The notes under the pieces are model-generated. The model ran no database searches. It worked only from the letters and a program-made list of their open reading frames with translations, and had not been told where the DNA came from. Both the position numbers and the translations under genes were made by a program. From Candidatus Omnitrophota bacterium (GTDB lineage: Bacteria > Omnitrophota > Gorgyraeia > Tantalellales > Tantalellaceae): a stretch of 64,000 bases of DNA. Shown here in pieces: positions 2,730-63,068 of this stretch. The stretch covers positions 1,882 to 65,881 of the forward strand of contig SLID01000099.1 of the NCBI GenBank assembly GCA_007135805.1. Direction: 5' to 3'. Positions within the stretch are counted from its first letter, which is position 1, and every line of letters starts with the position of its first letter.

Positions 2730-4313
2730 ATGGCTAAAGGGTATCTGGCACTTGTTCTTCACGCGCATCTTCCTTTCATACGTCATCCTGAACATGAAAG
2801 TTTTCTGGAAGAGAACTGGCTTTTCGAGGCTATCACCGACACTTACATACCTCTCATAAACGTTTTTGACAGCCTCATTTCGGACGGCGTGGATTTTCGC
2901 ATAACGGTTTCACTCAGCCCGACATTGATGGCCATGCTCAGGGATGATCTGCTCATATCGAGGTATCACGCCCACATGGACAAGCTTATAACGCTGGCTC
3001 AGCTGGAAGTCGAGAGAACGCGGTCGGATAAAAGGGTCAACGATCTGGCGGTGATGTACCTCGAAAGGTTCCGCAACGCCAAGAGTGTTCTTTCCGACAA
3101 GTATGGCAACGACCTTCTATCAGCTTTCAAGAAATTTCAGGATCTAGGCAGGGTCGAGGTAATAACGTGTTGCGCCACTCACGGGTTTTTACCGTTGATG
3201 GATGTCGCAAGGTCTGCCGTCAGGGCTCAGGTGGAAGTAGCTGTAAAAGCTTACAAGGAAGTTTTCGGGCAACCTCCGAAGGGGATGTGGCTTCCCGAAT
3301 GCGCTTATCTTCCGGGCCATGACGAAATACTCAATGAGTTCGGAATAAGTTACTTTTTTGTTGAGACTCACGGCGTCCTTTTCGGGTCACCCCGTCCCAA
3401 GTATGGGGTCCACAGTCCCTATCTCTGCAAGTCGGGGACGGCGGTTTTCGCGAGGGACATGGAAAGCTCAAAAGCGGTATGGAGTTCCAAGGAAGGTTAC
3501 CCCGGTGATTATAACTACAGGGAGTACTACCGCGACATAGGTTTTGATCTGGATTACGACTATGTTAAGCCTTATATCAACGGTTGCGGTACCCGCGTGA
3601 ATACTGGTATAAAATACCACAAGATAACCGGTGACGCCGACCACAAAGACCTTTACGATCGGAACAGGGCGCTGGAGAGGGCCGCGGACCACGCCGGAAA
3701 TTTCATGTTCAACAGAGAAAAACAAGTGGAACATCTCTCGGAGATGATGGATAGGAAACCTGTGATAGTTTCGCCTTATGACGCTGAACTTTTCGGTCAT
3801 TGGTGGTTTGAGGGACCCGAATGGCTGGGATACCTTTTCAGAAAAATGCACTTTGACCAGGACAATTTGAAAAGCATCACGCCGGGAGATTTCCTGAAAC
3901 TTTACGACAGGTTCCCTGTAATAACGCCCTCGGCCTCGACCTGGGGTTACAAGGGATACAACGAGGTGTGGCTTGACGGTTGTAACGATTGGATATACAA
4001 ACATCTTCATAAGATGGCCGAGATAATGACAACGGACGCCCGCGATTACGAGGGTCCGACTCCCCTGGAAAGAAGAGTACTGAACCAGATGGCAAGAGAG
4101 CTTCTGCTGGCACAGTCCAGCGATTGGGCGTTTATAATGAAAACCGGGACTTTTGTGGAGTACGCTGTCAACAGGACACGGGAACACATAGGCAGGTTTC
4201 TTGCCCTTCATAAACAGCTCAGGGAGGGGGAAATAGACCAGGAAATGGTGGGAGAGGCCGAAAAAAAATTCACGGCTTTCCGTGATATAGATTACAGGGT
4301 CTATGCCGGATAG
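2730..4313 (+). CDS. 1,4-alpha-glucan branching enzyme, GH57 type
   Basis: ATG at 2730 is in frame with track ORF 2655..4313 and preceded by AGGAGGAA. The N-terminus MAKGYLALVLHAHLPFIRHPE is the hallmark start of GH57 branching enzymes (Thermus/Thermococcus type). 528 aa. Confidence 0.85.
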   Translation: MAKGYLALVLHAHLPFIRHPEHESFLEENWLFEAITDTYIPLINVFDSLISDGVDFRITVSLSPTLMAMLRDDLLISRYHAHMDKLITLAQLEVERTRSDKRVNDLAVMYLERFRNAKSVLSDKYGNDLLSAFKKFQDLGRVEVITCCATHGFLPLMDVARSAVRAQVEVAVKAYKEVFGQPPKGMWLPECAYLPGHDEILNEFGISYFFVETHGVLFGSPRPKYGVHSPYLCKSGTAVFARDMESSKAVWSSKEGYPGDYNYREYYRDIGFDLDYDYVKPYINGCGTRVNTGIKYHKITGDADHKDLYDRNRALERAADHAGNFMFNREKQVEHLSEMMDRKPVIVSPYDAELFGHWWFEGPEWLGYLFRKMHFDQDNLKSITPGDFLKLYDRFPVITPSASTWGYKGYNEVWLDGCNDWIYKHLHKMAEIMTTDARDYEGPTPLERRVLNQMARELLLAQSSDWAFIMKTGTFVEYAVNRTREHIGRFLALHKQLREGEIDQEMVGEAEKKFTAFRDIDYRVYAG

Positions 4314-4360
4314 CCGTACAGAGGTTAAACAAACTGGATAATACCAAGGAGGCAAGTAAG

Positions 4361-4660
4361 ATGGTAAAAAAAGCAGCTAAAAAAACAGTGAAAAAGGCGG
4401 CATCGGGGGCTTCAAAAGCCAAAACAGGGGCGAAGAAAGCACCTAAGAAAACGATGAAAAAGACCGTTTCGAAAAAGACTCCCGCTAAAAGATCATCCAA
4501 AAGGTCCATTTCGCTGAAAAATATGAGCGATGAACAGCTGTATGGGCTCATTTCGGAGAAGGCTTACGAGTTATATCTGAAAAGAGGCTCGAGCCACGGT
4601 AACGACCACTCCGACTGGTACAGAGCGGAAAGTTTTATCCTTTCCAAATACAAGAAGTAG
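4361..4660 (+). CDS. Histone H1-like lysine/alanine-rich protein with C-terminal DUF2934-like domain
   Basis: 99 aa. N-terminal KKAAKKTVKK low-complexity basic region. C-terminal YELYLKRGSSHGNDHSDWYRAE matches the DUF2934 pattern (AYElw..RG...G.dledWl.AE). RBS AAGGAGG 8 nt upstream. Confidence 0.6.
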   Translation: MVKKAAKKTVKKAASGASKAKTGAKKAPKKTMKKTVSKKTPAKRSSKRSISLKNMSDEQLYGLISEKAYELYLKRGSSHGNDHSDWYRAESFILSKYKK

Positions 4661-4767
4661 CAGGTCTACCGTTACTGTGACATGATCGCCTTGATCCCCG
4701 GTCAGGTTCCGTGTTTCTGGGCTTTCTGTCTTTCTGTTCGCGGGCTTTGCCCGAGAGGATATTACTG

Positions 4768-6024
4768 ATGAAGAAGGTTCTATCGGTCATACTCGGCGGA
4801 GGGCAGGGTACGCGGCTTTTTCCTCTTACGAAAGAGAGGTGTAAGCCGGCTGTGCCACTGCTTGGGAAATACCGTCTTATAGACATTCCTGTGAGCAATT
4901 GTCTTAATTCCGGTTTTAACAGGATATATGTGCTTACTCAGTTCCTTTCCGAATCGCTCAACAAACATATAAGCCGTACTTACAAAATGGACACTTTTTC
5001 CAAAGGTTTTATTGAAGTAATGGCGGCGGAACAGTCCATGGAGGATACGCATTGGTTCCAGGGTACCGCTGACGCGGTACGCAGATGCCTGAAACACTTC
5101 AACGACCCGGCAATACAGCATATCCTGGTGCTTTCCGGAGACCAGCTTTATAAGATGGATCTGGACGACATGTACAGATATCACCTTGAAAAGGACGCCG
5201 ACTTGACCGTAGCGTGTAATTATGTTCCCGAGAGCGAAGTAGGCGGTCTGGGAATAATGGGTATAGGGAAAGACAGTCGCATAAAACGTTTCAAGGAAAA
5301 ACCCGGGAGTGTTGATGACATCAGGGACATGGCCGTATCCGGCAAGTCTGGGGGGAAAAGTTTTCTGGGATCTATGGGAATATATCTTTTCAAAAAAGAA
5401 GCTCTGGTGGATCTTCTGGTAAACAGCAGGGAGGTAGATTTTGGAAGAGAGGTCATCCCAATAGCCATAGAGAAGAAAAACACCTACGCGTATCTTTTTG
5501 ACGGCTATTGGAGGGACATCGGAACGATAAAGAATTTTTATTCGGAGAACCTGGCCCTGGCGGGTCAAATCCCCCCCATGGATATGTTTGACGAAAAATG
5601 GCAGATCTTTACCCGTACGCGTTATTTGTCCCCGGCAAAGTTTGAGGATTGTTCCGTGGCCCAGAGCATTATCGCCGAGGGAAGTATAGTGCTTTCGGCC
5701 AGTATAAAAAATTCTGTAATAGGTTTGAGGTTCAGGGTCGAACCGGGAACAGTAATAGAGGACTGCGTAGTTATGGGGTGTGATTATTACCAAACCGCCG
5801 AACAGAACTCTTCCGATATCTCATCCTCTGTTCCAATTCTCGGGGTAGGGAAGAACTGTCACATAAGAAGGGCCATAATCGATAAGAACGTCCGTATAGG
5901 CGATAATGTGAAGATCCTCAACGAAGACAACGTCGAGCACGCCGACGGACCCAATTACTATATCCGGGAAGGCATAACCGTTATTCCCAAGAATGCAGTG
6001 GTAGAGCCCGGCACGGTCATATGA
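4768..6024 (+). CDS. glgC: Glucose-1-phosphate adenylyltransferase
   Basis: Track ORF 4711..6024. The in-frame ATG 4768 gives MKKVLSVILGGGQGTRLFPLT, the canonical NTP-transferase G-rich start. About 418 aa, with a C-terminal left-handed beta-helix region. Confidence 0.9.
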   Translation: MKKVLSVILGGGQGTRLFPLTKERCKPAVPLLGKYRLIDIPVSNCLNSGFNRIYVLTQFLSESLNKHISRTYKMDTFSKGFIEVMAAEQSMEDTHWFQGTADAVRRCLKHFNDPAIQHILVLSGDQLYKMDLDDMYRYHLEKDADLTVACNYVPESEVGGLGIMGIGKDSRIKRFKEKPGSVDDIRDMAVSGKSGGKSFLGSMGIYLFKKEALVDLLVNSREVDFGREVIPIAIEKKNTYAYLFDGYWRDIGTIKNFYSENLALAGQIPPMDMFDEKWQIFTRTRYLSPAKFEDCSVAQSIIAEGSIVLSASIKNSVIGLRFRVEPGTVIEDCVVMGCDYYQTAEQNSSDISSSVPILGVGKNCHIRRAIIDKNVRIGDNVKILNEDNVEHADGPNYYIREGITVIPKNAVVEPGTVI

Positions 6025-8191: not shown

Positions 8192-8551
8192 ATGGATATA
8201 GCGCTTTACATGGCTTTGGGTCTACTGGCCGGGATAGCCGGAGGTTTTCTGGGTATTGGCGGAGGGTTGATCATTGTGCCGTTTCTGGTATATTTCTTCG
8301 GGCTTACGCAGCATCAGGCCCAGGGAACTACCCTCGCTCTTATGCTTCCCCCTGTAAGTCTTCTGGCCGTTCTTAAATATTACCAGCATGGTAATGTGGA
8401 TATTCGCGTCGCTGTTTTTGTCTCTCTTGGCTTCTTTTTCGGGGGCCTTGCGGGAGCATATCTCGTTGCGCCCGTTCCCGAACAGATACTTCGCAAGATA
8501 TTCGGTATTTTTCTGCTTAGCTTTGCCGTAAAAATGATCGTGGGAAAGTGA
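8192..8551 (+). CDS. TauE/SafE-type (DUF81) membrane protein, half-size form
   Basis: 119 aa, 4 predicted TM helices. Glycine-rich GIAGGFLGIGGGLIIVPFL motif is characteristic of sulfite exporter TauE/SafE family repeats. Confidence 0.55.
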   Translation: MDIALYMALGLLAGIAGGFLGIGGGLIIVPFLVYFFGLTQHQAQGTTLALMLPPVSLLAVLKYYQHGNVDIRVAVFVSLGFFFGGLAGAYLVAPVPEQILRKIFGIFLLSFAVKMIVGK

Positions 8552-8644
8552 GTTCTGCCGGAATTTTGCGGGTGTTTTTCTTCTGAGCTGTAACATCTCA
8601 GTCATCCGCGGAAATATAGCGTCTCAACGCCCGTCTTTGCGAAC

Positions 8645-8677
8645 CCGCCGAAGGCGGGTGAAGCAATCCCAATAAAC
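8645..8677. repeat. Second copy of hairpin motif TTGCGAACC-[CCCGCC gaa GGCGGG]-TGAAGCAATC
   Basis: Stem 8652-8668. Flanks are identical to the motif at 23265..23300, while the stem bases are swapped and still pair. The upstream 8610-8644 resembles a degenerate copy of the 61-bp unit. Confidence 0.75.
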
Positions 8678-8791
8678 AAATGTTGCCGGGTATTTTTCCC
8701 GCGCGTAATATTTTATCGGTCTCCCTCGGAAGTCTTCGCCACTGAAAACCCTCCGCCCCGCTCCCGGGACCAAAAACTTCCAAAAAACTGG

Positions 8792-22064: not shown

Positions 22065-22799
22065 ATGAGGAACGTAAAACTGACTATCGCTTACGACGGC
22101 ACAGCCTACAAAGGCTGGCAGGTACAGAAAAACGGCCGGACCGTACAGGCCGAGATAGAAAAAGCTATAGCCAGGGTGATAGGATCAAAACACACGGTAC
22201 ACGGCGCGGGACGTACGGACGCGGGAGTTCATGCCATAGCACAGGTCGCTAATTTCAAAGCCCCCATAAACTTTGATGTTGCCAGGATACCCCCCGCCCT
22301 TAATACCGTTCTTCCCGGGGACATAGCCGTAAAAAAAGCGGAAGAAGTTCCGCCGGATTTTCACTCCAGATTCGACGCCAGGGCTAAAGTCTACAGTTAC
22401 AGGATAGTCGTGAGCCGCGCGCGCGATCCCTTTTCCGAAAGATATGTCTGGAGGTTGCCGTACGCCCTTGATGAAAGAATTATGAGAGAAGAGGCCCGTG
22501 TTCTTATTGGGAAACATGATTTCAAGAGTTTTCAGGCCTCGGACAAGAGGGAGCGTTCATCGGTCCGTACGATCAAGAGCATAAGCATCCAGAGGACCGG
22601 AAGCAATATTACCTTAGACATCGAGGGTGACGGATTTCTTTACAACATGGTCCGCAGTATAGCGGGAACCCTGGTGGACATAGGAAGAGGTTATCTTCTT
22701 CCGGGGAGTATGACGGATATACTTGCCTCCCGTGATCGAAAAAAAGCCGGTCCCACTGCCCCCGCCAAGGGTTTATTCCTTGTCAAAGTGAAGTACTGA
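22065..22799 (+). CDS. truA: tRNA pseudouridine(38-40) synthase
   Basis: 244 aa. IAYDGTAYKGWQ start and GAGRTDAGVHA catalytic Asp motif. Confidence 0.9.
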   Translation: MRNVKLTIAYDGTAYKGWQVQKNGRTVQAEIEKAIARVIGSKHTVHGAGRTDAGVHAIAQVANFKAPINFDVARIPPALNTVLPGDIAVKKAEEVPPDFHSRFDARAKVYSYRIVVSRARDPFSERYVWRLPYALDERIMREEARVLIGKHDFKSFQASDKRERSSVRTIKSISIQRTGSNITLDIEGDGFLYNMVRSIAGTLVDIGRGYLLPGSMTDILASRDRKKAGPTAPAKGLFLVKVKY

Positions 22800-22889
22800 A
22801 TATAGACCGCTCCCGGCATGCGGCAATTTCCTTATTTGCCCCGGCAGCGGGAGTCTTTATGTACCTTCTATCTTGCTTTTTATCCCGCT

Positions 22890-23015
22890 TCCGGCGCCTT
22901 ACTGGCGCGGTCATTGTGAAGCTTTCGCGGTGAATGACTGATATTCCCTTTGAGGGACGCTCGGTTTTCCCAGCGCGGAAATCATCGCTGGGCGGACTCC
23001 CTCGCTCTTTCTGCT
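22890..23015. repeat. Dispersed ~125-nt intergenic sequence element, copy A
   Basis: About 80% identical over about 100-125 nt to 42191..42315. Shared blocks CATTGTGAAG(C)TTTCGCG(R)TGAAT ... GATATTCCCTT(Y)GAGGG(R)CGCTCG ... TCCTCGCTCTT. Confidence 0.7.
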
Positions 23016-23022
23016 CGGGACA

Positions 23023-23277
23023 CATCGCGAACCATGCCCGCTCGGCGAACATTTCATTTATACGCGGGAACTTTCAGTCCCGTCATCGCGAACCATGCCC
23101 GCTCGGCGAACATTTCATTTATACGCGGGAACTTTCAGTCCCGTCATCGCGAACCATGGCCGTTCGGCGAACATTTCATTTATCCGCGGTAACTTTCAAT
23201 CCCGTCATCGCGAACCATGGCCGTTCGGCGAACATTTCATTTATCCGCGGTAACTTTCAATCCCGTCATCGCGAACC
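23023..23277. repeat. Tandem direct repeat, 61-bp unit x 4.2 copies
   Basis: Units start at 23023, 23084, 23145 and 23206, with a partial unit at 23267. Units 1-2 are identical and units 3-4 are identical; the two subtypes differ at a few positions. There are no spacers, so it is not a CRISPR array. Confidence 0.95.
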
Positions 23278-23300
23278 CCGCGAAGCGGGGTGAAGCGATC
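23265..23300. repeat. Conserved hairpin motif CGCGAACC-[CCCCGC gaa GCGGGG]-TGAAGCGATC terminating the tandem array
   Basis: 7-bp GC stem (23275-23291) with GAA loop. The same motif, with compensatory stem changes, is at 8645..8677. Confidence 0.8.
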
Positions 23301-23560
23301 TCAGTTTAAAAACATTTAGTTTTTCCGGAAACAATCGATATGCTGAAAGTCGCCTTGTTACAGAGGAAAGTACAAAGCTCCTTAAAGTTATAAGGAGCCT
23401 TCCGTAAACAGTCTCTCTCCGAGATGTTTCAATTTGATGGCATCACTTCGCCGCCCCCTTCGGGGCGCCCTCGTGATCGTGTCGTTTAGATTTACCGCAG
23501 ATGAGTGATGGTTGCTTTCGGCATTCCTCATCAGGCGATAATACTTTTTTAGTCCCTAAT

Positions 23561-23602
23561 TTGACAAGTATAAATACTTGCTGTATACTTGTTGTGTACT
23601 TG
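23561..23602 (+). promoter_or_regulatory. Sigma70-like promoter (TTGACA-17-TATACT) with three TACTTG direct repeats phased at 11 bp
   Basis: -35 at 23561-66 and -10 at 23584-89. TACTTG at 23575, 23586 and 23597, each preceded by TGT(A/G). The repeats overlap the -10 and the start site, as an operator would. Confidence 0.65.
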
Positions 23603-23626
23603 TAAAAGTTTTGTTGAGAGGTTGAT

Positions 23627-23797
23627 ATGGCCAGAAAGAGGGGATTCAAATTCTATTCCACTGTATCGGACCGGGGGCAGATATTTATACCCAAAGTCCT
23701 GCAGGATTATTTTGGTATACGTAAGCGCGATAAGGTGGAGTTTATTGTGAAAGACGACGGGAGCATAGTGTTCGCAAAGAAGGAGGGGAAAGAGTGA
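23627..23797 (+). CDS. AbrB/MazE/SpoVT-family swapped-hairpin DNA-binding protein (56 aa)
   Basis: Not in the ORF track (below 60 aa). MARKRGFKFYSTVSDRGQIFIPKVLQDYFGIRKRDKVEFIVKDDGSIVFAKK fits the SpoVT/AbrB domain pattern (..rGQvtIPk.iR..lgi..GDkvef.v.ddg.ivl.k). GAGAGG RBS 5 nt upstream, consensus promoter upstream. Confidence 0.7.
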   Translation: MARKRGFKFYSTVSDRGQIFIPKVLQDYFGIRKRDKVEFIVKDDGSIVFAKKEGKE

Positions 23798-23973
23798 AGA
23801 AAAAAAACAGGACCCATTCGCACAAGGTGACGATCAATGATCAGCGGCGGGTAAACAAGATGGCCTCGGATCTAGGCAGCAAACCCGTTTCGAAAAAGGT
23901 CGTACACAATGTATTCGAGACATATTACAAGAATCAGGTAAAAGCTCTTTACCGGGCTGTTCTTGGAGAATAA
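23794..23973 (+). CDS. Small basic hypothetical protein (59 aa), translationally coupled to the AbrB-like gene
   Basis: GTG start overlaps the upstream stop (GTGA). Strong SD AAGGAGG lies 7 nt upstream, inside the upstream gene. Product VKKKNRTHSHKVTINDQRRVNKMASDLGSKPVSKKVVHNVFETYYKNQVKALYRAVLGE has no family I recognise. Alternative ATG at 23860. Confidence 0.4.
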   Translation: MKKKNRTHSHKVTINDQRRVNKMASDLGSKPVSKKVVHNVFETYYKNQVKALYRAVLGE

Positions 23974-24106
23974 AGGCTTTTTGTCCGGCCGGGATAGAAA
24001 CAAAGGAACATACTTCCGAGGGGGCCAACTTTTACAGTTTGCTGGATAGCGTCGTGTCTTCTGAAAGAAAGTCCTGGAATTCTCTTGACTCCTTGTTAAA
24101 ATGCCC

Positions 24107-24133
24107 TTGACAAGCAAAGCCGAATGTGATAAT
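24107..24133 (+). promoter_or_regulatory. Sigma70-like promoter with extended -10 (TTGACA ... TGtGATAAT) for rplM-rpsI
   Basis: TTGACA at 24107-12. TGnGATAAT at 24125-33 (15-17 bp spacing depending on the hexamer chosen). About 75-nt leader before rplM. Confidence 0.55.
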
Positions 24134-24209
24134 TTTAGCATTCTATTCAGGCGGTGAGCGTGTTCACGCAGCACCGAGGGTTTATTATGTCCAATAAAAG
24201 ATTTAATGA

Positions 24210-24668
24210 ATGAAGGCAATTATGAAAACAAAAATGGTGAAACATAAAGAGACTTCTCATGAATGGTTTGTGATGGATGTCGAAGGACAGGTATTAGGTA
24301 GGGCAGCCAGCGAGATCGCGACGCTTTTGAGCGGAAAGTACCGACCCGATTTCACTCCGAATGTGGATAATGGAGCGGGGGTGATTGTGCTTAACTGCGG
24401 AAAGGTTAGGATAACTGGAAAGAAAGCTGAACAAAAATTTTACAAGAGGTTTTCGGGATATCCGGGTGGACAGAAAGTCACAAGGTACGACAAGATGATG
24501 GAAAAGGATCCCACTTATGCTCTAAGGCACGCGGTCAGAGGTATGCTGCCCAAGAACAAGCTGGCTACGCTTATGCTGCGGAGACTCAAGCTATACGTTG
24601 GGACAGAACACCCCCACGAGGCCCAGAAACCCGTGGAGAGGAAAATACAAGACGGAGATGAAAGATGA
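24210..24668 (+). CDS. rplM: 50S ribosomal protein L13
   Basis: [36 protein letters not shown] and [19 protein letters not shown] match L13. The start may be the ATG at 24222. Confidence 0.9.
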
Positions 24669-25060
24669 GCGAGAAAACAGTAAAAATAGTTATCGGACGG
24701 CGCAAGGAATCAGTAGCGAGGGTGCGTCTGGTAGAGGGTAACGGTAAGGTTCGGGTAAACAAAAGGCTCTTTGAGGATTATTTCCCGAGAGAAACCCACA
24801 GGATAGTTGTGATGCAGCCAATGGAAGCTACGGGGACAGTCGGTAAATACGACGTTCTGGCTACCGTTTCCGGTGGGGGAATAAGCGGACAGGCCGGAGC
24901 GCTGAAGCACGGCATAGCCAGAGCGCTTCTTGAAGTGGACAGTTCAGCCCGGACAGCCCTGAGGAACGGAGGCTTCCTTACACGGGATCCCAGGGCCAAG
25001 GAACGGAAGAAATACGGCCAGAAACGCGCCCGCAAAAAATTCCAGTTCTCAAAAAGATAA
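24665..25060 (+). CDS. rpsI: 30S ribosomal protein S9
   Basis: 131 aa. [24 protein letters not shown] and C-terminal [25 protein letters not shown]. Confidence 0.95.
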
Positions 25061-25080
25061 GTTTTCAGCGTATACCCGCA

Positions 25081-25111
25081 AAAGCCACGCTCATAGAGCG
25101 TGGCTTTTTTT
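25081..25111 (+). terminator. Rho-independent terminator after rpsI
   Basis: AAAGCCACGC-tcataga-GCGTGGCTTT stem (10 bp) followed by a T7 run. Confidence 0.85.
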
Positions 25112-25405
25112 GTAGATATTATTTGAAATCCCCATCTTGAACCCAAGATCCCAGATAGAAACATCAGAAATCCCAGAGGAATATACGCCATTGCCGTCAA
25201 TAGGCCTGTTCTTCGGCCGCGTTTTCAGGCCATAATTAAAAGGCGCGACGCGAATTTGTACCAGTCGCTCATATGTTATTTTGAATGGCGCTCCGTGACA
25301 GTCTCATATTGTTTATTTGATAGGGGCGGTCATCCAGGGATGGGGAGAGGTTATTTTCAACAGCGAGCGCTGGGAAGATCTTACGGGATGTATCAGGGGT
25401 TTTTC

Positions 25406-32163: not shown

Positions 32164-32235
32164 CCGCGTGAAGCGATCTGTCCCGAGGGCTAAATTCTGC
32201 CCAGAGGGTCGGGCAGAAGAAGAGTGGGAGGAATT

Positions 32236-41974: not shown

Positions 41975-42190
41975 AAAATAAGGATAGCGACCGTTTTTTG
42001 AGGTCAAAGGTTACTGGTTCGGAGAAAGCCCCCCCGAAACGGCTAAAGTAGGGTGTAATTCTAATTAGATCCTCCGCCAGGCGTAATTTTATAAAAAGAA
42101 GTTTTCAAAGGCCATGTGACAACTTCCTTTGCGGTGACAAGGAACGACGGGATCTGCTACATGGTTTCTCATTTTATCTCTATCACGCTG

Positions 42191-42315
42191 CCGGCATCTT
42201 ATTAGCGGCGGCATTGTGAAGTTTCGCGATGAATAGCGGATATTCCCTTCGAGGGGCGCTCGATTTCCCCGGCGAGGAGATCTTCGCGCGACGCACTTCC
42301 TCGCTCTTATAAAGG
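42191..42315. repeat. Dispersed ~125-nt intergenic sequence element, copy B
   Basis: Aligns to 22890..23015 (see copy A). Lies between the nadX stop and the promoter of the Na/Pi cotransporter gene. Confidence 0.7.
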
Positions 42316-62997: not shown

Positions 62998-63008
62998 ACC
63001 CGCGTTAC

Positions 63009-63044
63009 CCCGAGCGTATCCCGGCTGGCCGGGATACGCTCGGG
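63009..63044. other. Perfect 17-bp inverted repeat hairpin immediately 3' of ppdK
   Basis: CCCGAGCGTATCCCGGC-tg-GCCGGGATACGCTCGGG. There is no U-tract on either strand. Confidence 0.8.
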
Positions 63045-63068
63045 AAAACAATAAGAGAGGGGAAAAAG

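Follow-up and report, generated by a model that had tools for sequence, protein, structure and literature searches.

An apparently lineage-specific 61-bp tandem repeat made of parts of two dispersed elements, upstream of an AbrB-like operon in Candidatus Omnitrophota

In a genome of Candidatus Omnitrophota, four 61-bp units stand head to tail in the spacer that separates truA from a conserved operon with an AbrB-like gene. What is this array, how did it arise, and does it have a function of its own? The original prediction, made from the letters of a 64,000-nucleotide stretch of this genome (the window), had named three candidate roles: a repeat-containing non-coding RNA, a protein-binding array and a satellite-like expansion. 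The last of these is the best supported. Searches of Rfam, RNA folding and a search for promoter-like sites gave no evidence for the first, the promoter-like site search and others gave none for the second, and neither the functional-RNA nor the protein-binding reading has positive support. We consider it probable that the array is a lineage-specific minisatellite of the VNTR type without demonstrable function of its own, born by slippage at the junction of two dispersed elements, A and M. Slippage as the mechanism, and neutrality, are what we infer from the anatomy of the unit, the 11-mer that bounds it, the order of the units, the absence of the array from relatives and the difference in copy number between assemblies.

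The array and its locus

TRF places the array at 23023-23277, with a period of 61, 4.2 copies, 97% matches and a score of 440, and finds no other array with a period above 15 in the 64-kb window. The units start at 23023, 23084, 23145 and 23206. All four open with the 11-mer CATCGCGAACC, which, as had been predicted, occurs once more as an 11-nt partial copy in front of the terminal hairpin, the unit boundaries being formed by this 11-mer direct repeat. Checking the units base by base gave the order A A B B, with no difference within the AA and BB pairs and 8% divergence between the two types (15 C/G, 19 C/T, 40 A/C, 46 G/T and 55 G/A). Period, copy number, the identity of units 1 and 2 and of units 3 and 4, the two subtypes and the terminal hairpin were thus as originally described, except that the subtypes differ at five positions and not at about six. 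Duplication of a 122-bp two-unit block, which had also been proposed, is excluded by the order of the units, since it would have given ABAB. The terminal hairpin (23268-23299) has AUCGC/GCGAU as its outer stem, within which lies a further stem of 7 bp; the folding energy of the hairpin is -21.1 kcal/mol (z = -3.9), and the other strand is equally stable.

Table 1. Features of the array, of the surrounding spacer and of related copies in the window
Feature	Position	Strand	Basis or remark
Module H, 5' hairpin module of element A copy 1, just past the truA stop	22815..22862	+	Alignments; fold -21.1 kcal/mol
Core of element A copy 1 (A1), dispersed intergenic repeat	22880..23009	+	
Tail of element A1, TCTGCTCGGGACACATCGCGAACCATGCCCGCTCGG	23010..23045	+	Common to A3; extends 23 nt into unit 1
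Units 1 and 2, type A, identical, 61 nt each	23023..23144	+	Direct reading, TRF
Units 3 and 4, type B, identical	23145..23266	+	Differ from A at 15, 19, 40, 46, 55
Terminal 11-mer CATCGCGAACC, second direct-repeat copy bounding the unit; 5' arm of M hairpin	23267..23277	+	
Element M, plus-strand copy: 5' flank (last 31 nt of unit 4), hairpin 23268-23299, 3' flank	23236..23315	+	R1 90.9 bits
Diverged M-like copy, inverted, ~110 nt from M(+)	23424..23509	-	R1 26.3 bits, E ~0.005, compensated stems
M copy, 45 nt past the stop of plus-strand ORF 8192-8551	8597..8682	+	R1 44.9 bits, E ~1e-6
Element A copy 2 (A2): module H and core; without tail, array and M; 3' truncated	42108..42311	+	
A-to-A junction of array units			Diagnostic sequence ...CAGTCCCGTCATCGCGAACCATGCCCGC...
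A-to-B junction of array units			Diagnostic sequence ...CAGTCCCGTCATCGCGAACCATGGCCGT...
B-to-B junction of array units			Diagnostic sequence ...CAATCCCGTCATCGCGAACCATGGCCGT...

The array sits in a non-coding spacer of 828 bp, and all neighbouring genes are on the plus strand. Upstream are an aconitase-family (leuC-like) gene, an isopropylmalate/isocitrate dehydrogenase gene, asd and truA (22065-22799); downstream follow the genes of a 56-aa AbrB/MazE-fold protein (23627-23797) and of a 59-aa basic protein, then rplM, rpsI, argC and argJ. The similarity of TruA places the organism in Candidatus Omnitrophota, although the nearest TruA among 5.8 billion proteins is just 71% identical. The AbrB-like protein has up to 89% identity in other Omnitrophota, and its gene occupies the same position between truA and rplM in the relatives examined, so that it is not a recent insertion. 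In relatives with the synteny truA / AbrB-like / rplM the truA-AbrB spacer measures 233 bp and is without the array. The sole part of the spacer that they have in common with the window is a promoter/operator (TTGACA-17-TATACT, 23561-23589), in a region (23561-23603) that includes the 11-nt repeat ATACTTGTTGT 2.7 times. The extra ~600 bp of the spacer, the array included, is, as judged from these sequences, specific to this lineage.

In the nearest GTDB relative rplM comes straight after truA, and the extra DNA between these two genes was at one point taken for a lineage-specific toxin-antitoxin insertion. This reading was wrong, because the AbrB-like pair is conserved at this place in many Omnitrophota and only the repeats are lineage-specific. 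The 56-aa and 59-aa proteins (23627-23973) do resemble a toxin-antitoxin pair. They are 70-89% identical across Omnitrophota, above the value for TruA (at most 71%), and are encoded upstream of rplM-rpsI in the relatives examined, which points to a conserved regulator more than to an addiction module. In a contig of a related member of the phylum (ENA ERZ926039, positions 1-378), the equivalent spacer upstream of the AbrB-like gene is occupied by an unrelated inverted repeat with 88-nt arms, 99% complementary and 202 nt apart; the spacer thus appears to collect different repeats in different lineages. A separate inverted repeat, in the window itself (63004-63049) and flanked on one side by the gene of a PEP-utilising enzyme and on the other by a sigma-70 gene, has 22-nt arms (91% complementary) and a 2-nt loop, and is probably a terminator.

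The open reading frames that run through the array had been regarded as artefacts, and we agree: they have no match in Pfam or PADLOC, an exact-product lookup finds no record of the 119-aa product, and the reading frame is not kept among the copies of element A, which differ by a 1-nt indel. Moreover, 61 is not a multiple of 3, hence any ORF through the array shifts frame at each unit. The ENA record annotates an 89-aa ORF on the minus strand (22783-23052), which covers element A entirely and extends into the 3' end of truA on one side and 30 nt into unit 1 on the other. This ORF matches no family and is probably a spurious call.

Elements A and M and the origin of the unit

The stretch 22815-23510 is a mosaic of dispersed modules, which follow one another as H, A core, A tail, array, M in plus orientation, a gap and M in minus orientation. 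Copies of these modules were sought in the 84 kb available for this genome, which include the window and, from contig k141_454202 of ENA ERZ27301263, 10 kb beyond its end, and it is from just these 84 kb of one genome that the families A and M are known. Element A is present in three copies and one 5' fragment. The second copy (A2, core ~42180-42311, plus strand) is ~80% identical to the A1 core over 42222-42308, is flanked by an aspartate dehydrogenase gene and a Na/Pi-cotransporter-PhoU gene, and has no array behind it; a promoter-like TTGACA...TAAGTT lies just downstream of it. The third copy (A3, on the minus strand at 18942-18850 of L098, a locus from k141_454202) is 82% identical to the A1 core, and its homology runs past the core into TTTCGCTCGGGACACAGCGTGAACCATACCCGCTCGG, which by manual count is identical to the corresponding TCTGCTCGGGACACATCGCGAACCATGCCCGCTCGG of the window at ~33 of 37 nt. 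Because the homology extends through TCTGCTCGGGACACATCGCGAACCATGCCCGCTCGG, the first 23 nt of the repeat unit are the tail of element A. Homologues of module H occur upstream of A2 and, as a fragment, at the tRNA-Arg locus, where the fragment stands right behind the third copy of M.

That the unit is linked to the end of element A had been predicted correctly. The resemblance cited for it, to GCGCGGAAATCATCGC in the A core, is at shuffle level (Smith-Waterman score 15, compared with 14.8 ± 2.4 in dinucleotide shuffles); the A tail, recognized through A3, lies 3' of the GCGCGGAAATCATCGC region. In a consensus fold of the three A copies three pairs are compensated and, on the plus strand, several are of the G-U type; going by this modelled structure, element A itself could be a small RNA. 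The start of the unit is complementary over 10 nt to TTCGCG(G/A)TGA of element A, a match no better than chance, which was discarded. Searches of GTDB genomes, JGI metagenomes, viral contigs, plasmids and phages found nothing. The element A pattern had no match in GTDB genomes and none in viral contigs; its four matches in JGI metagenomes were put down to chance, similarity not extending past the pattern. A 19-mer of the unit gave no match when searched, and comparison of the spacer with plasmids and phages by blastn gave none either.

Element M measures ~80 nt and consists of a hairpin of 12 bp between conserved flanks; it was found six times in the 84 kb, always between genes. The three copies behind the tRNA-Arg(CCT) gene read ...AAAAACTNTAANCNCCGTCATCGCGAACC-CGCCAGAGGCGG-GTGAAGCGATCT..., and the M that ends the array reads ...AACTTTCAATCCCGTCATCGCGAACC-CCGCGAAGCGGG-GTGAAGCGATCT..., with inner-stem changes that are compensated relative to the copies at the tRNA locus. 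From these four copies a covariance model (R1) was built, and searching with it detected two further copies in the window, at 8597-8682 and 23509-23424. In the model-fitted alignment of the six copies 98.6% of the hairpin cells are paired and 6 of the 12 pairs are changed on both sides, which none of 500 shuffles matched. The M hairpin is, on this comparative evidence, a genuine conserved element. A candidate copy at 32167 turned out to be a chance match. Also rejected was a hammerhead-like stretch on the minus strand near 23500 (CUGAUGAG...CGAAAG), in which stem II fails to form and for which there is no Rfam match; it belongs to the inverted M-like copy.

The tRNA-Arg(CCT) gene lies ~1.3-2 kb past the 3' end of the window (L098, 12239-12970) and is followed by a tandem repeat of its own, with a 264-nt period and 2.0 copies (95%). 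Within this repeat the last ~53 nt of the tRNA recur twice, as partial matches to the Rfam tRNA family, and M occurs three times; M is separated from each tRNA fragment by ~150 nt, which include a 14-bp hairpin and have no Rfam match. The arrangement is reminiscent of stacked att-site duplications or of another slippage product.

The 61-nt unit aligns to positions 1-41 of the M model, which means that its positions ~31-61 and the 11 nt after the unit correspond to the 5' flank and 5' stem arm of M. Each unit is therefore a chimera, with the A tail at positions 1-23 and truncated M in the remainder from ~31. This second dispersed element, which had escaped the original prediction, accounts for ~42 of the 61 nt and also for the terminal hairpin. 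The word CATCGCGAACC is present both in the A tail (as CAGCGTGAACC in A3) and in the 5' arm of M.

A simple course of events would account for this anatomy. In the ancestral spacer the A tail, ...GGGACA-CATCGCGAACC-ATGCCCGCTCGG..., would have adjoined an element M, the 5' flank of which, ...TTTATCCGCGGTAACTTTCAATCCCGT-CATCGCGAACC, led into the 12-bp hairpin; the un-duplicated ancestor would thus have carried two CATCGCGAACC words in direct orientation, 61 nt apart. Slipped-strand mispairing in replication, or unequal recombination, between these words would have doubled the 61-nt interval, each unit consisting of the A tail and of an M truncated before its hairpin, and the hairpin completing the last copy alone. 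When a short direct repeat bounds a duplicated interval and its word occurs once more at the end (here the 0.2 in 4.2 copies), slipped-strand mispairing or unequal exchange is the textbook explanation. The two copies may then have diverged at five sites, after which each would have been duplicated again to give A A B B. With 8% difference between A and B the first duplication is not new, and the identity within the AA and BB pairs makes the second round recent. Among the points against the minisatellite reading are that the first duplication survived long enough to gather five substitutions, and that AABB calls for two more duplications of 61 bp, independent of each other, once the copies had diverged, a less tidy course than a single event.

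The distribution of the substitutions was also considered. At positions 15 and 19 it is the A units, adjoining element A, that retain the state of A3, and at positions 40 and 55 the B units, adjoining the hairpin, that retain the M consensus; all four informative substitutions thus fall on internal, redundant copies (p ~0.06). This polarity is suggestive, and would fit intact A and M elements that are constrained or homogenised and an array interior that drifts.

Cutting and rejoining of single-stranded DNA by HUH/Y1 transposases has been proposed for REP clusters, and the array might likewise be the by-product of a RAYT-type enzyme acting at the foot of the M hairpin, and not of replication slippage. 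We regard this as unlikely, even though the unit boundary is at the 5' foot of a conserved hairpin element, M forms an inverted pair in this spacer, and close relatives carry a RAYT gene at the same locus, two genes downstream. The available 84 kb of this genome contain neither a RAYT nor a Y1 gene, and for slippage a direct repeat of 11 bp at a distance of 61 bp is enough. The RAYT of a related Omnitrophota contig (JGI Ga0643561_0001732, 3848-4865) is a 314-aa protein, in which the RAYT domain (NF047646, 84.5 bits with a cutoff of 80) is fused to a DnaA C-terminal domain. Its gene is inserted between a 57-aa gene and rplM, a position at which the window has none, and is flanked by 31-nt inverted repeats, 100% complementary, which contain the 11-mer GACATGTGACA. 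This 11-mer is also found in the arms of module H at the tRNA locus; it provides a link to H, not to M, and since its occurrence in the window with one mismatch allowed is at chance level, the link is a lead rather than a test. A limited search of the literature found no description of a REP/RAYT system in this phylum. The structured intergenic repeat families H/A and M, which are undescribed and carried by this genome, together with the RAYT-DnaA fusion of relatives, could support a study of REP/RAYT-type elements in Omnitrophota.

Functional readings and copy number

Is the array part of a functional RNA? A plus-strand non-coding RNA could be imagined to run from A1 through the array to the M hairpin and to serve as a sponge or decoy, or to be processed into unit lengths in the manner of ToxI, but this is very unlikely. 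There is a conserved structured element upstream of the array and a strong hairpin downstream. The differences at positions 15, 19 and 46 preserve, through G-U pairs on the plus strand only, a possible 5-bp helix (CCCGC/GCGGG in A, GCCGU/GCGGU in B), which was chosen post hoc and is absent from the MFE fold. The 461-nt region folds below its shuffles (z = -3.75 for the plus and -2.36 for the minus strand); however, any tandem repeat with hairpin elements on its flanks should give a low z when folded at this length. Single units and dimers, the folding of which had been suggested as a check, were on both strands indistinguishable from shuffles, with z values of -1.1 to +0.5 for units. Nor are GGA motifs conserved from one subtype to the other.

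Other searches for a transcript or a partner of it were likewise negative. Rfam gave no match at gathering score in the window and only chance-level matches (E at least 2) in a sensitive search of 22700-23700, and ARAGORN found no tRNA or tmRNA in the window. No promoter-like site was detected in the array or before it, and the one terminator-like site, at the end of the A core, is weak. No ToxN/AbiQ-like or other defence protein is encoded next to the array, and no toxin, cas, rep or reverse-transcriptase partner near it. The next genes, for the 56-aa AbrB-like and the 59-aa protein, have their own promoter ~290 nt further on, and in relatives these genes are kept without the array. We give very little credence to the specific form of the RNA reading in which A1, the four truncated M modules and the M hairpin make up one plus-strand transcript with functional repeats; these may, for example, be decoys, their 5' arms competing for the one 3' arm of the hairpin, a sponge, or a processed RNA like those of type III antitoxins. 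If it were true, copy number would set how strongly the downstream AbrB-like / ribosomal-protein operon is affected.

Assembly collapse and copy number had been pointed out as an issue, and the available assemblies prove it to be a genuine one. In the MEGAHIT contig k141_454202 (ERZ27301263) the array consists of one A and one B unit, 2.2 copies compared with 4.2 in the window. Outside the array this contig has no mismatch to the window in ~7.6 kb around the array and one in a separate stretch of 10.9 kb (identity >99.99%), by which we take it to be an independent assembly of a near-identical strain. Another run, SRR7083934, yielded a Logan contig that is 100% identical to 23248-25378 of the window. 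It begins at 23248, at the 30-mer CGGTAACTTTCAATCCCGTCATCGCGAACC, which has two successors in AABB. With k = 31, the value used by Logan, position 23248 is the out-branch point (k-1 = 30 nt) expected if a B unit precedes another unit, whereas AB has no branch at this k. The start of the contig thus points to at least one B-to-unit junction in independent reads. In the proposed comparison of copy number, the number differs between assemblies and the tandem structure finds support; the latter is, on these contigs, not peculiar to the window assembly.

It follows that an assembly artefact, with a true locus of two units (AB) or fewer, has to be weighed as well. Mis-joins or uncorrected loops can yield adjacent identical units, and the near-identical MEGAHIT contig has A and B alone. 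We nevertheless find this explanation highly improbable: de Bruijn assemblers collapse tandem repeats and do not expand them, exact repeats within AABB do not exceed 78 nt, so that it is unambiguous at k of at least 79, and the independent k = 31 contig starts at a branch point that exists only with a B-to-unit junction. The AB form in the ENA contig could be either a true allele or a collapse.

That the array is a set of operator- or iteron-like binding sites, e.g. for the adjacent AbrB-like regulator or a DnaA-domain protein, is hardly credible: each unit does contain the palindrome TCGCGA, B units also have CCGCGG and, in TTATCCGCG, a match to the DnaA box at 7 of 9 positions, and an AbrB-type DNA-binding protein is encoded ~350 bp downstream, but the motifs are not conserved between A and B units, the 61-bp period does not fit whole helical turns, the neighbourhood is free of replication genes, relatives retaining the AbrB-like protein are without the array, and the conserved promoter/operator with the ATACTTGTTGT repeat sits elsewhere.

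Biologically the array, which we read as a minisatellite, matters little as it stands. It is a worked example of how two dispersed repeats, where they meet, can give birth to a minisatellite, might be used for typing strains of this uncultured Omnitrophota population, and is a warning that the truA-AbrB spacer is assembly-sensitive.

Comparison with known repeat systems

CRISPR arrays, iterons and type III antitoxin RNAs were rejected as models, because in each case a defining feature is missing. The period of ~61 nt is within the range of a CRISPR repeat plus spacer; however, in agreement with the original prediction, there are no unique spacers. The five differences are scattered over the whole unit, and no cas gene occurs among the housekeeping flanks. 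Also as predicted, the period is unlike that of iterons, which are repeats of ~17-22 bp next to a replication initiator or origin, whereas the 61-bp unit has leuCDB, asd, truA, rplM, rpsI and argCJ for neighbours and no replication gene among them. The RNAs of type III antitoxins (ToxI, CptI, TenpI) resemble the array in being tandem short non-coding units that end at a hairpin upstream of small genes. In contrast to them, the array is not followed by a ToxN/AbiQ/CptN/TenpN-type gene but by those of the 56-aa AbrB/MazE-like protein and a 59-aa protein without family, for which PADLOC has no match; the unit has 61 nt instead of ~34-45 nt, no promoter stands in front, and the units are not individually structured.

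More is shared with REP sequences and REPINs. M is a short, conserved and compensated hairpin, an imperfect palindrome in multiple intergenic copies with one inverted doublet, and relatives encode a RAYT at a neighbouring position. It differs from typical REPs in its longer conserved flanks (~40 nt on the 5' side), and the dispersal seen amounts to six copies in 84 kb, with a single inverted pair. M thus has the hallmarks of a REP-like element, the defining feature of which, a cognate RAYT, was looked for in the 84 kb alone and not found in this part of the genome. The spacer as a whole is similar to the BIMEs of E. coli and the NIMEs of Neisseria in that it consists of several short dispersed modules (H, A and M), a conserved palindromic hairpin among them, which recur in combinations that vary from locus to locus: A is followed by M here, whereas behind tRNA-Arg M precedes a fragment of A. 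In sequence the modules are not similar to those families, and the tandem is a direct one, of a truncated hairpin element fused to the A tail, not one of alternating inverted REPs.

The closest parallel of the array itself is with minisatellites, direct head-to-tail repeats with units of ~10-100 bp, and with the MIRUs of mycobacteria, which are intergenic tandem repeats of 40-100 bp. Like these, it is composed of near-identical units of tens of bp, lies free of protein constraint in a non-coding spacer between co-oriented genes, and may vary in copy number, which differs between two near-identical assemblies. Unlike MIRUs, its whole unit is not dispersed to other loci, no second one being found in the window or in the 10 kb beyond; it is just the two parts of the unit, A tail and M, that recur elsewhere in the 84 kb. 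There is also no small ORF coupling it to the flanking genes, as there is in some MIRUs. The array fits the definition of a bacterial minisatellite, probably of the VNTR type, and the mosaic around it resembles the REP clusters of the BIME/NIME type.
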